64,000 nt of DNA from an uncultured Clostridium sp. (GTDB taxonomy: Bacteria; Bacillota; Clostridia; TANB77; CAG-508), in the NCBI GenBank assembly GCA_947364715.1, contig CANAUI010000002.1, forward strand, positions 13,124-77,123, given 5' to 3'. The notes below the pieces were generated by a model. The model had not been told where the DNA came from, did no database searches, and saw only the letters and a program-made list of their open reading frames with translations. Positions 22,313-25,724 of the stretch are shown here, one piece after another (position 1 is the first letter of the stretch; each line of letters opens with the position of its first letter). A program made the translations under genes and the position numbers.

Positions 22313-23647
22313 ATGGAATTAGGAAAAGTACCACCACATGATATAGAAGCAGAACAAGCTGTTTTAGGAAGTATGCTAACAGATAAAGATGCAGTTATAT
22401 CTGCTATAGAAGTCTTAAAAGAAAGTGATTTTTATAGAACAGATAATAAATCAATTTATGAAGCAATAATTAATTTATATAATCGAGCAGAACCAGTCGA
22501 TATAATTACTGTTAAGGCTGAATTAGAATCATTAGGTAAATTCGAACAGGTGGGAGGACTAGAATATTTAGCAAGTTTACCAGATAAAGTTCCAACAACA
22601 GCAAATGCTATGAAATATGTGAAAATTGTAGAAGAAAAATCAACTGTAAGACATCTAATAAAAACAGCAAATGAAATTATCGAATTAGGGTATGACCCAA
22701 CAGAAGATGTATCAGATATTATGGAAGAGGCAGAAAAAAAGATATTTAACATTATGCAAAATAATGATAAAAAAAGTTATTCACCTATAAAAGACATTCT
22801 TGTAGATAGTTTCACACAATTGGAAGAATTATATAATAGAAAACAGCATATTACAGGTGTACCATCTGGATTTACAGAACTAGATTATAAAACAGCTGGA
22901 TTTCATGGCTCAGATTTAGTTTTAATTGCTGCAAGACCTGCAATGGGGAAATCTGCCTTTGCCTTAAATATAGCAACAAATGCATCTGTACGTGCTAATG
23001 TACCAGTAGCTATTTTCAGTTTAGAAATGTCAAAAGAACAAATGGTAAACAGAATTTTATGTAGTGAAGCAATGGTAGACAGTAATAAAGTAAGAACAGG
23101 AAAATTGGAAGAAAATGATTGGACAAAATTAGCAGGAAGCATAGGACCATTATCAGATGCAGAAATATATATAGATGATACACCAGGAATATCTGTTATG
23201 GAAATTAGAGCAAAATGTAGAAAATTAAAATTAGAAAAAAATATTGGAATGGTAGTTATTGACTATTTGCAATTAGTACAAGGAAGCAATAAAAGAAATG
23301 GAAGCCGTGAACAAGAAATATCAGAAATTAGTAGGTCACTAAAAATACTAGCAAAAGAATTAAGTGTACCAGTTATTGCATTATCACAATTATCAAGAGC
23401 AGTAGAACAAAGGCCAGACCATAGACCAATGTTATCAGACTTAAGAGAATCAGGAGCAATAGAGCAAGATGCAGATATTGTTATGTTTTTATACAGAGAT
23501 GATTACTATAATAAAGATAGCGAAAAAAAGGATATTGCAGAAGTAATCCTAGCAAAACATAGAGGAGGCTCTTTAGGAACAGTAGAATTATTATGGTTAG
23601 GCAGTTATACAAAATTTGTTAATTTAGAAAAGAGATTTGATGACTAA
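22313..23647 (+). CDS. dnaB: Replicative DNA helicase (DnaB family)
   Basis: N-terminal PPHDIEAEQAVLGSML, Walker A ARPAMGKSAF, IDYLQL and SQLSR motifs. Confidence 0.95.
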   Translation: MELGKVPPHDIEAEQAVLGSMLTDKDAVISAIEVLKESDFYRTDNKSIYEAIINLYNRAEPVDIITVKAELESLGKFEQVGGLEYLASLPDKVPTTANAMKYVKIVEEKSTVRHLIKTANEIIELGYDPTEDVSDIMEEAEKKIFNIMQNNDKKSYSPIKDILVDSFTQLEELYNRKQHITGVPSGFTELDYKTAGFHGSDLVLIAARPAMGKSAFALNIATNASVRANVPVAIFSLEMSKEQMVNRILCSEAMVDSNKVRTGKLEENDWTKLAGSIGPLSDAEIYIDDTPGISVMEIRAKCRKLKLEKNIGMVVIDYLQLVQGSNKRNGSREQEISEISRSLKILAKELSVPVIALSQLSRAVEQRPDHRPMLSDLRESGAIEQDADIVMFLYRDDYYNKDSEKKDIAEVILAKHRGGSLGTVELLWLGSYTKFVNLEKRFDD

Positions 23648-23648
23648 T

Positions 23649-23733
23649 GTGCCAAAATGCCCAGTCCCATTTTGGCAACTCTTTTCACAATGTGCCAAAT
23701 GGGACGGGGCATTTTGGCAACTTTTTTCACAAT
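23649..23733. repeat. Two tandem 42-43 bp units, each carrying a GC-rich REP-like palindrome
   Basis: Unit 1 is gtgccaaaatgcccagtcccattttggcaactcttttcacaat and unit 2 is gtgccaaatgggacggggcattttggcaacttttttcacaat. The stems are identical and the loops are near reverse complements of each other. Confidence 0.7.
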
Positions 23734-23807
23734 ATACTCATTTTTATAAAAAATAAAATAGGGGCAATGTTATATAGGGGCATACATTTTAATACAAGAG
23801 GTGAATA

Positions 23808-24587
23808 ATGCCAAGAACAGCAAGAAAGTATATAACAGGGTCCTTTTTTCATTTAATGACACAAGAAATCAATAGAGAATATATTTTTGAAAACAATAAA
23901 GATAAAGCAGTGTATGAAAAATTCATATTTCTATACAAAGATGAATTTGATGTTAATATATTATCATATTCTATTATGGATAATCACACACATATATTAA
24001 TCAAAGTTGAAACAGTTGAAAACATGTCAAAGTTCATGCACAAAGTAAACACTCAATATGCTATGTATTATAATAAAGAATATGATAGAACAGGATATGT
24101 TTTTAAAAATCGATACAAAGCACAAATGATTGACTCATGGAAACACTTATATAGATGTATAGATTATATTCATGATAACCCAGTAAAGGCCGGAATTTGT
24201 AAAAATAGGAATCAATATCAATATTCTAGTTTTACAAAATTATATCAAGATAGTCAGACAAAAGCGATGACAGTATTAGAAAGATATCTTAAAGATGGTC
24301 TTATAAATCAAAATCATGATAGAGATGAAAACACTTCAAAAGGCAATGATAATATAATTTTTTTAGAAAATACAGATGAAGATAAAAGAAGTATATGTCA
24401 AAAGGAAATAGATAAATATATACTAGAAAAACAAATAGACAAAAATATTTTGATAAAGAATAGAGAAAATTTAAGGGAAATAGTTATTAGGTTGAAATCT
24501 AAAAAGATTTCATATAGAATAATGTCAGAAAAATTAGGTATTGGAAGAGAAACATTAAGAAGATTGAATACAGAATTGAGTAAATAG
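23808..24587 (+). CDS. REP-associated tyrosine transposase-like protein (IS200-like Y1/HUH fold, COG1943 RayT type) with a C-terminal HTH-like tail
   Basis: The sequence fits the RayT consensus as I remember it: R..RK...G.FFH.M...(I)N...IF, the HUH motif MDNHTHILI, and GYVFKNRYKAQ.I with the catalytic Tyr region and YIH.NPVKAGI. The tail carries ISYRIMSEKLGIGRETLRRL. Confidence 0.8.
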   Translation: MPRTARKYITGSFFHLMTQEINREYIFENNKDKAVYEKFIFLYKDEFDVNILSYSIMDNHTHILIKVETVENMSKFMHKVNTQYAMYYNKEYDRTGYVFKNRYKAQMIDSWKHLYRCIDYIHDNPVKAGICKNRNQYQYSSFTKLYQDSQTKAMTVLERYLKDGLINQNHDRDENTSKGNDNIIFLENTDEDKRSICQKEIDKYILEKQIDKNILIKNRENLREIVIRLKSKKISYRIMSEKLGIGRETLRRLNTELSK

Positions 24588-25724
24588 ATGGGAGAGAATA
24601 TGGGAACAAGAATAAAGGAAGATTGTTATATAAAGGCAATAAAAACAATAAAGAAATATAGATTAATAAGTCCAGGAGACAAACTAGTTGTTGGTGTGTC
24701 AGGAGGACCTGATTCTATGTGTTTGTTAGAGATTTTGACAAGAATAAAACATCAAAGTTGCCAAAATGGCACGTCCCCTTTGGCAAGTTTTGATTTTGTG
24801 GTTGCCCATGTTAATCATATGATTAGAGAAGAAGCAAAAGAAGATGAACAATATGTCAAAAATTATTGTATAAAAAATGATATACAATTTTACACAAAAA
24901 GTATAGATGTTAAAAAAATGGCTAATACTAATAAAATCAGCATAGAAGAAGCTGGAAGAAATGCAAGACATGAATTTTTTTATGAAATATTACAGAAAGT
25001 AAGAGCAAATAAGATTGCTATTGCACATAACAAAAATGATAAAGTAGAGACCATAATTATGAATGAATTAAGAGGTTGTGGTATAAAAGGATTAAAAGGA
25101 ATTGAACCAGCAAGAGATAGATATATTAGGCCATTAATTGAATGTGAAAGAAAAGAAATAGAACAATATTGTGAAGAAAATAATATAAAACCAAGAATTG
25201 ATAAAACTAATTTTGAAAATATTTATACTAGAAACAAAATTAGAAATGTTGTTATTCCATATATAAAGAAAGAATTTAATCCTAATGTTATTGAAACAAT
25301 AAATAGACTTTCTGAACTTGTAATAGAACAAGAAGAATATATACAAAAACAAACTGAAAAGATTTATGAACAAATTGTTATAGAAGAAAATTTAAACTTA
25401 CAATTGCAAAAAGAAAATATTTCAACTAAACAGTTAATGGAGCAAGATAAAAAAACTATACAAGACAAAAAAACTGCACAAGATAATGAATATATTTTAT
25501 TAGATTTGAAAAGATTTAATGAACAAGAAAAAGTAATAAAATCAAATATAATTTTATATACTATAACAAGACTTTTTAATATGGGTAAAGGAATTGAGAA
25601 AATACATATAGAAGATATTATAAAATTATGTTTAAATAATGTTGGAAATAAATTTTTAATGCCAAATAAAAATTTGAAAATTTTTATTAAAAATGGACAA
25701 ATAAAAATTTCTAAGGAAGTATAA
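24588..25724 (+). CDS. tilS: tRNA(Ile)-lysidine synthetase
   Basis: PP-loop VGVSGGPDSMCLL plus HVNHMIREE. The start is either ATG 24588, which abuts the upstream TAG, or ATG 24600 after GGGAGAG. Confidence 0.9.
   Translation: MGENMGTRIKEDCYIKAIKTIKKYRLISPGDKLVVGVSGGPDSMCLLEILTRIKHQSCQNGTSPLASFDFVVAHVNHMIREEAKEDEQYVKNYCIKNDIQFYTKSIDVKKMANTNKISIEEAGRNARHEFFYEILQKVRANKIAIAHNKNDKVETIIMNELRGCGIKGLKGIEPARDRYIRPLIECERKEIEQYCEENNIKPRIDKTNFENIYTRNKIRNVVIPYIKKEFNPNVIETINRLSELVIEQEEYIQKQTEKIYEQIVIEENLNLQLQKENISTKQLMEQDKKTIQDKKTAQDNEYILLDLKRFNEQEKVIKSNIILYTITRLFNMGKGIEKIHIEDIIKLCLNNVGNKFLMPNKNLKIFIKNGQIKISKEV
24759..24785 (+). repeat. 27-nt REP-like palindrome inserted in-frame inside tilS
   Basis: tgccaaaatggcacgtcccctttggca is codon-aligned and encodes CQNGTSPLA. 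It belongs to the same family as the copies at 23650-23677 and 23693-23719. Confidence 0.65.

Follow-up and report, generated by a model that had tools for sequence, protein, structure and literature searches.

The locus between dnaB and tilS on a 64,000-nucleotide stretch of an uncultured Clostridium sp. (GenBank: GCA_947364715.1, contig CANAUI010000002.1, positions 13,124 to 77,123; this whole stretch is called the window below, and coordinates without a locus name count from its first letter) is quite likely a unit of the REPtron or TIRtron type. It would consist of a vertically inherited, single-locus gene for a Y1 nuclease of the repetitive extragenic palindrome (REP)-associated tyrosine transposase (RAYT) lineage, which carries a C-terminal helix-turn-helix (HTH) domain and is bracketed by inverted copies of a cognate hairpin of about 30 nt. 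Because of the HTH tail and of hairpins without the GTAG tag, the locus is closest to the HTH-bearing TIRYT or subclass 2.1 kind, which fits better than the classical RAYTs. One of the two flanks lies in frame within tilS, the gene for the tRNA-Ile lysidine synthetase.

The open reading frame (ORF) between the flanks scores 47 bits against the Y1_Tnp family (Pfam: PF01797), for which the cut-off is 23. The AlphaFold (AF2) model of the protein has a predicted local distance difference test score (pLDDT) of 83.6 and consists of an alpha/beta nuclease domain, a disordered linker (residues 165-180) and a C-terminal helical domain (helices in residues 191-255). With this model as the query, the best solved structure found by Foldseek is that of E. 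coli TnpA-REP bound to a REP hairpin (PDB: 4ER8; E = 7e-7, TM(target) 0.69), and the IS608 and ISDra2 transposases rank after it. Thus the profile match and the fold agree with a first-pass annotation of the window, made by a model from the sequence alone, which had called the ORF a RAYT-type transposase.

Six residues, H60, H62, Y120, N124, P125 and K127, are the same in all of 84 homologues. The same annotation had named the HUH motif, which stands as H60/H62, and had placed the catalytic tyrosine in an NRYKAQ block, which does not stand: that tyrosine is a Phe in several homologues. We predict Y120 to be the catalytic tyrosine instead. It lies within IDYIHDNPVKAG (DYIHDNPV) and is aligned to Y115 of E. 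coli TnpA-REP (4ER8), which we take to be the catalytic residue of that enzyme. The C-terminal domains of homologues match HTH_7, HTH_11, HTH_23, HTH_28 and HTH_8, and the protein of the window by itself has a weak HTH_26 match, while a Pfam search with its isolated C-terminal 85 residues gave no significant match. The matches in homologues and the modelled helices bear out the HTH-like tail that had been noted from the sequence. The dN/dS ratio (nonsynonymous to synonymous substitution rates) of the gene is 0.16-0.35 among three close lineages and is lowest in the nuclease domain, with 0.09-0.28.

The pattern TGCCAAA-N6-20-TTTGGCA has three matches in the window and none in 100 shuffles. These are the three palindromes described in the first-pass annotation, which had also called them GC-rich; their cores have a GC content of 0.50-0.56 against 0.264 (26.4%) for the window. 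A mismatch scan that allowed up to nine mismatches in 29 nt detected no fourth copy in the 64 kb. The hairpin has a stem of 7-12 bp (TTGCCAAA/TTTGGCAA in the window), a 13-nt loop and the family-wide loop motif GGGGACG, which reads CGTCCCC on the other strand. On the left side, two units of 43 nt (unit 1) and 42 nt (unit 2) stand in tandem, starting 2 nt after the dnaB stop. As had been claimed, the 3' flanks repeat in direct orientation (96% identical) and the cores are mutually inverted (96% complementary). Since the cores are inverted, the two units as single-stranded DNA fold as one long hairpin of -28.9 kcal/mol (z = -7), compared to -9.3 kcal/mol (z = -4.8) for unit 1 and -9.7 kcal/mol (z = -4.1) for the right hairpin in tilS.

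Unit 2 and the copy in tilS (24754-24793) are inverted partners over 40 nt with 85% complementarity. Orthologues of unit 2 are found 3' of the dnaB stop in eight loci of related genomes, which are referred to here by L and a number (L005, L008, L011, L014, L017, L018, L022 and L146). The spacer between dnaB and the Y1 gene measures 160 nt in the window and 110-117 nt in relatives, which have a single left unit, so the extra left unit, unit 1, is a species-specific duplication with a flipped loop.

The gene order dnaB–Y1–tilS–ftsH is kept at Y1 protein identities of 88, 84, 65, 58, 51, 46 and 37%, and a single orientation is found in all assemblies of more than ten lineages. Because the synteny reaches down to 37% identity, the Y1 gene has a fixed locus and is inherited vertically, unlike an insertion sequence that moves about. 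Each Y1-positive locus examined has the gene between two inverted copies of a single hairpin, and both copies change jointly with the lineage. L017 has the pair GTGCCAAAATAGCCCGTCCCC... with a hairpin of the type GTGCCAAAATAGCCCGTCCCCTTTGGCA, and its right copy lies in the same TilS loop as in the window (VCQNSPSPLA). The same is true for L022 (TCHLSPTPMA), where the hairpin is of the type TTGCCATTTATCTCCGACCCCGATGGCAA and the left copy is its exact reverse complement. In L018 (pair TTGTCAAAAAGGGGCGTCCC..., type TTGTCAAAAAGGGGCGTCCCTATTGACA) the right copy is doubled, with one copy 3' of the Y1 stop and one in TilS codons 5-13, and L020 has a TTGTCAA type with the left copy in the last codons of uvrB.

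Two of these loci have further particulars. In L018 (10744-10832) the right hairpin and about 30 nt form a tandem duplicate with a period of 60 nt, one copy being intergenic and the other encoding SCQKGASLLT, and the TilS loop there has no hairpin copy. In L020 (9859-9887; also L021 and L035), Clostridiales bacterium UBA9784 has a paralogous Y1-HTH gene of 40% identity, located 3' of uvrB, and the left hairpin of this gene falls in the last 12 or so uvrB codons. An autonomous insertion sequence of the IS200/IS605 kind was considered and rejected: the window has a single copy, whose locus is the same in all lineages, the hairpins are inverted and not in the same orientation, and the IS200 model gives 24.4 bits at a cut-off of 55, far less than the RAYT model.

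As first described, the right copy starts 172 nt past the end of the Y1 gene, is in register with the tilS codons and adds to TilS the residues CQNGTSPLA, which separate the PP-loop helix from the AHVNH strand. It had also been noted that TilS is about nine residues longer here than in B. subtilis, and the HMMER alignment to Geobacillus TilS (PDB: 3A2K) has a nine-residue gap exactly at CQNGTSPLA; Aquifex TilS (PDB: 1WY5) has an eight-residue gap at this site. In the predicted TilS structure, CQNGTSPLA occupies the end of helix 37-55 and a surface loop with pLDDT below 50, ahead of strand 65-73. The loop is variable. We surveyed the stretch from SGGPDS to AHVNH in 120 TilS clusters with 71% identity or more to the TilS of the window and found a form with no copy (22 aa, ITMLDILLKIKQTKKISFDFVV), one with one copy (29 aa, MCLLEILTKIKQKSCQNGTSPLATFDFVV), one with an inverted doublet in frame (42 aa, ...SCQRGRAILATEKMCQNGTSPLAQFDFVV) and one with a decayed doublet (42 aa, ...SSERGMFSLKQEEGCQNGTSPLA...). 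Palindrome-free orthologues with 71-76% identity are seven residues shorter at the loop, and others have two copies.

The 27-mer in tilS has no variable column out of 27 in six lineages, while 36 out of the next 120 columns and 19 of 40 third-codon positions vary, which argues that the constraint acts at the DNA level too and not on the peptide alone. The copy is the right flank of the Y1 gene, conserved across deep lineages. The first-pass annotation had proposed a REP that invaded tilS without disrupting it. Its RAYT-type gene and its in-frame copy in an undisrupted tilS hold; the copy is no recent or stray insertion. It had further let the stop codon of the transposase abut the start of tilS, and here we differ: the start is probably at 24600, given the conserved MGTRIKED N-terminus, the GGAG ribosome-binding site and the ATA that replaces the upstream ATG in L008. 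This leaves 12 nt between the Y1 stop and the tilS start, and the tilS gene calls in L001-L004 begin 13 nt after the Y1 stop.

To find further copies, we scanned a genome collection, with one genome per species, with TGYCAAAANNNNNCGTCCCNNTTGRCA, a pattern that includes the CGTCCC core. At least 120 stretches match, in many metagenome-assembled genomes (MAGs) labelled as uncultured Clostridia, Clostridium sp., Lachnospiraceae and Eubacterium, often on several contigs of one MAG. The counts of copies and pairs given from here on hold among the matches listed. At stem position 9/31, the 166 copies have T-A in 82 cases, C-G in 75 and T-G in 9, and C-A never occurs. The outer stem bases are variable yet complementary, so the stems show compensatory changes. 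Of the neighbouring hairpin pairs, 28 out of 31 are in the '-+' order seen around the Y1 gene, and the spacings fall into clusters of 33-51 and 68-88 nt. The conserved motif CGTCCC(C) is located in the loop and not at the stem foot, its CGTCCC core being part of the search pattern. Copies in relatives begin directly 3' of the stop codons of a GdpP-like gene, rpoC, ftsH and dnaB. Moreover, extra inverted doublets, typically starting directly after a stop codon, are found in nearby intergenic regions of L014, L017, L022 and L146. Relatives have 0-4 extra hairpins per 20 kb and the window has none.

True internal genic copies were found only in tilS and in one NTP-transferase gene out of about 168 copies. 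Most other ORF-embedded matches are artefacts of stop-to-stop ORFs which reach 5' of the true starts, and the remaining genic ones are at 3' ends. The NTP-transferase case is an inverted doublet at L113 4050-4151, translated in frame in a 477-aa NTP-transferase/cupin-type ORF (…GQGCQRGRFFLTTFDENSGEEKTVEEKSCQKEPSPLTPL…).

Dispersed hairpins are also often found 10-60 nt 5' of the start codons of housekeeping genes, namely dnaK and glyRS (two species each), clpC, fmt, dinB and holA (L090, L120, L075, L138, L052, L115, L073 and L086). Shared ancestry, an insertion preference or regulation may underlie this placement. A CtsR or CIRCE operator was rejected for the copies 5' of clpC and dnaK, as just one loop subtype resembles a CtsR half-site. 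Besides the searched family, there are hairpins with a GGGGACG/CGTCCCC or GGGAC loop and unrelated stems, for example TGATGATTTT...AAAATCATCA, L146 20812-20904, L011 4469-4499 and the CTGTTT...AAACAG hairpin of L011 and L144, which suggests several hairpin subfamilies per genome.

Some strains lack the Y1 gene. In L144, tilS directly follows dnaB, and both the Y1 gene and the hairpin copy in tilS are missing. L144 and the Y1-positive L011 share 98-100% DNA identity in rplI, dnaB, ftsH and the part of tilS after AHVNH, but their first 153 nt of tilS are 75% identical, and the high identity ends precisely where, on either side, the outer edge of the hairpin lies. More generally, REP-positive and REP-negative TilS proteins have C-terminal parts that are 96-100% identical and N-terminal parts that are 59% identical, whereas N-terminal identity averages 98.9% in REP-positive pairs whose C-terminal parts agree to at least 97%. 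L147 (166-732) is a third allele without Y1 gene or hairpin, and its recombinant tilS 5' end joins a type-A N-terminus to a type-B loop (P0161). As L144 and L147 have neither the gene nor the copy, the Y1 gene and the tilS copy appear to be tightly linked.

Between dnaB and the TilS loop, near-identical strains therefore come as Y1-plus, as Y1-minus with another hairpin (TGTCCA...TGGACA, loop with GGGACG, L144 9897-9929) and as Y1-minus and hairpin-free. The N-terminal TilS module of Y1-minus alleles is 94.6% conserved across species, compared to 82.9% for Y1-plus, with C-terminal parts 85-90% identical, which hints at horizontal spread of the Y1-minus module.

Table 1. Features at the dnaB-tilS locus, in coordinates of the 64,000-nt window.
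Feature	Position	Strand	Details
dnaB (replicative helicase)	22313..23647	+	Pfam DnaB, DnaB_C; left palindromes within 2 nt of the stop; layout shared by all relatives
Left unit 1	23649..23691	+	10-bp stem, 8-nt loop, degenerate CAGTCCC loop motif; direct flank AACTCTTTTCACAAT
Left hairpin core 1	23650-23677		TGCCAAAATGcccagtccCATTTTGGCA; GC 0.50
Left unit 2	23692..23733	-	Core loop with GGGACG; conserved flank on the left of the Y1 gene, in opposite orientation to the copy in tilS
Left hairpin core 2	23693-23719		TGCCAAATGggacggggCATTTTGGCA; GC 0.56
Two TAGGGGCA boxes	23759-23766, 23775-23782	+	16 nt apart, about 25-50 nt 5' of the Y1 start
Y1 HUH (RAYT-like) gene	23808..24587	+	259 aa; nuclease aa 1-145, linker, HTH aa 186-255 (24363-24572)
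tilS (tRNA-Ile lysidine synthetase)	24600..25724	+	PF01171; TIGR02432 192 bits; probable start, ORF open from 24588
Right hairpin	24758..24786	+	TTGCCAAA-atggcacgtcccc-TTTGGCAA; in the tilS reading frame as codons 54-62 (start at 24600)
tilS hairpin core	24759-24785		TGCCAAAATGGCACGTCCCCTTTGGCA; 27 nt; GC 0.56

By analogy with E. coli TnpA-REP and IS608 TnpA, the Y1 protein would bind the extruded hairpin in single-stranded DNA, and would cut and rejoin the DNA via a phosphotyrosine link at Y120, with the metal held by H60/H62. Such activity may generate, maintain or homogenise the hairpin population, and the Y1 domain probably owes its specificity to the invariant loop motif. In tilS, the copy may persist because its nine encoded residues are tolerated in the loop from helix alpha-1 to strand beta-2, while its sequence would be held constant as DNA, being the flank of the nuclease gene. 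On the other side, the left flank has in this species been duplicated with a flipped loop into a REPIN-like long hairpin directly 3' of dnaB, which could double as the dnaB terminator.

Several points weigh against reading the locus as a REPtron or TIRtron. The Y1 ORF scores 64.8 bits against the NCBIfam model REP_Tyr_transpos (NF047646), which is under the cut-off of 80. Tabulated by position, the 166 copies show no GTAG/CTAC at the foot of the stem. The 64 kb of the window hold no dispersed copy and the matches listed include no locus of this species other than dnaB-tilS, so the flanks may be the whole 'family' in this genome. The covariation of the flanks with the Y1 lineage is confounded by common descent. 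Furthermore, Quentin et al. (2018, PMC6006769), who described TnpA-REP subclass 2.1 with a C-terminal HTH, found no REP-like sequences near these genes. The pairing of protein and hairpin is a prediction by analogy, and dyad-symmetric sites beside an HTH protein could equally be double-stranded operators.

The last point leads to an alternative that we consider unlikely, in which the Y1-HTH protein is a fully domesticated regulator with unused chemistry, and the palindromes TTGCCAAA-N13-TTTGGCAA are duplex operators at which a dimer controls the region of dnaB, the Y1 gene and tilS and the other genes that have a copy just 5' of them. The HTH domain, the dyad symmetry of the sites, the many copies 10-60 nt upstream of true starts and the long evolutionary fixation of the locus are all expected of such a regulator. 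However, a protein without chemistry does not account for an HUH motif and a tyrosine that are invariant in 84 homologues, nor for a nuclease domain with the lowest dN/dS. The compensatory stem changes, with outer bases that are free but paired, fit a folded hairpin better than a fixed operator, and most copies resemble REPs in that they directly follow stop codons and form inverted doublets.

This position after stop codons would also suit elements acting mainly on the RNA level, as dnaB terminator or mRNA stabilisers, to which the Y1 gene is incidental. Unit 1 is indeed similar to an intrinsic terminator in a consensus scan, and REPs have been reported in such roles in other bacteria (PMC3733652). 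We nevertheless regard this as quite improbable. A terminator within tilS would be harmful, and L014, L017 and L022 have not kept the T-run that follows the left hairpin, for which reason we rejected an intrinsic terminator as the general function. Moreover, the Y1-positive loci examined have an inverted copy on each side, the flank sequence shifts in step with the Y1 lineage, and the tilS and TTGCCAA-type left copies are missing where the gene is missing.

The sharp edges between L011 and L144, wholly different between the hairpins and about 99-100% identical up to their outer edges, together with the mosaic TilS, raise the idea of a cassette (the Y1 gene and the first 57 or so tilS codons) that the Y1 protein inverts or swaps at the hairpins. 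Inverted repeats within coding sequence are known from invertible-segment systems such as the G segment of phage Mu. This is very unlikely here, because the minus strand near the left hairpin encodes no alternative 5' part of tilS (which also excludes a shufflon-type invertible segment), inversion would wreck an essential gene, a single orientation is found in all the assemblies, and the recombinant L147 allele (P0161) indicates that the sharp edges need no more than ordinary homologous recombination between alleles that are old and divergent, so that we do not claim hairpin-mediated exchange.

Returning to the unit of nuclease gene and cognate hairpins, a bolder version of it, which we hold to be doubtful, is a self-preserving module. 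Its right end is translated in tilS, and the tilS ribosome-binding site and first codons, about 57 of them, lie between its ends, which would tie the Y1 gene firmly to a gene that the cell cannot lose. The base-perfect copy in tilS would then result from ongoing nuclease action, by homogenisation or repair templating, and not from passive tolerance. If so, simple deletion of the gene or recombination between the hairpins would be lethal, and removal would occur solely by replacement of the whole allele, as seen in L144 and L147.

The primary descriptions of the E. coli-type RAYT (TnpA-REP) REPtron are reportedly those of Nunvar 2010 and Ton-Hoang 2012. Like the E. coli REPtron (4ER8), the locus has a protein with the Y1 HUH fold and one catalytic tyrosine, predicted here, in a D-Y-I-x-x-N-P-V-K motif, its gene is found between inverted short hairpins at a single, vertically inherited locus, and its hairpin also occurs between genes of related genomes, singly and as inverted doublets. 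Unlike there, the protein has an extra C-terminal HTH and does not pass the curated RAYT hidden Markov model, GTAG is absent, CGTCCCC is located in the loop and not at the stem foot, one flank is translated in an essential protein and the host belongs to the AT-rich gut Clostridia.

TIRYT genes are RAYT-like genes with flanking inverted repeats that contain a GGGGWSAS motif, and together with these repeats they form TIRtrons (Di Nocera 2013, PMC3733652). TIRYTs, to which subclass 2.1 corresponds, share with our locus the RAYT-like protein with an HTH tail (HTH_23/HTH_28-type matches in homologues). The flanking inverted repeats contain a GGGG-rich motif in both, and some TIRYT repeats are self-complementary, moderately abundant and found in dimers. 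GGGGACGK (GGGGACGG / GGGGACGT) agrees with GGGGWSAS at seven out of eight positions and differs at position 7, with G for the consensus A. The flanks here are short REP-like hairpins and not long terminal inverted repeats. The text and supplements of PMC3733652 have no entry for tilS, lysidine or Clostridia, and the literature we searched has no paper linking RAYT and tilS.

In-frame REPs, i.e. intragenic GTAG/CGTC elements, are documented beyond the Rickettsia palindromic elements (RPEs) and include cases in replication and repair genes (Di Nocera 2013, PMC3733652). The tilS copy resembles RPEs and intragenic REPs as an in-frame palindrome in a housekeeping gene, which adds nine residues per unit, or about 22 as a doublet with spacer, in a surface loop, and a repair gene is affected in this clade as well (the uvrB 3' end in L020). 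In contrast to RPEs, the copy within tilS belongs to the transposase gene as its flank, is base-identical across species and is tightly linked to the presence of the Y1 gene. RPEs have many in-frame insertions, as opposed to tilS and one NTP-transferase gene among the roughly 168 copies listed here. The tilS copy works like an RPE, yet it is outside the RPE family.

Another comparison is that with the REPIN-RAYT systems of Pseudomonas (Bertels 2017, PMC5581495). In common are the inverted doublets as long hairpins, a single-copy, vertically inherited RAYT, and populations that change with the host lineage. The RAYT group is a different one and the copy number is apparently much lower here. Group 1 RAYTs do occur in Clostridia (PMC5581495). 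RAYT genes flanked by REPs, TIRYTs and TIRtrons, and in-frame REPs (PMC3733652) were thus already known. What is new is the combination of an HTH-bearing RAYT with genuine loop-tagged REP/REPIN-like hairpins, in a host from the Clostridia. Also new are the flank within an essential protein, which is frozen at the DNA level, the series with zero, one or two copies in TilS and the allele series.

Work on REP/RAYT systems has, to our knowledge, been almost confined to Proteobacteria. With this locus and its relatives, the branch with the HTH tail, which had been reported without nearby REPs, gains a clear population of REP/REPIN-like hairpins, hosted by uncultured Clostridia of the gut. The constant GGGGACG loop on variable stems offers a testable recognition determinant. 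A transposase flank that is built into an essential enzyme and base-identical across species is a natural case of dual coding for DNA structure and protein, and the series of TilS forms with zero, one or two copies, together with the Y1-plus and Y1-minus strains, provides material for asking whether domesticated nucleases are still active.

The two TAGGGGCA boxes upstream of the Y1 gene (Table 1) could be a promoter, operator or 5'-UTR (untranslated region) element. A G-rich box (TAGGGGCA, GGGGGA) is found at the same distance in L005, L008, L011, L014, L017, L018 and L022. A search of Rfam across 23400-25000 gave no score near any gathering cut-off. A sigma-54 promoter in the tilS copy was rejected by eye: TGGCACG is alike, but the downstream element is TTGG and not TTGC and is 2 nt out of register.

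In the window, hpt is absent between tilS and ftsH, the place which we take it to have in B. subtilis. TilS contains a low-complexity Lys/Gln-rich insert at about residues 268-294 (25400-25480), modelled with a pLDDT of around 30, and the length of TilS among close orthologues ranges from 335 to 400 aa.

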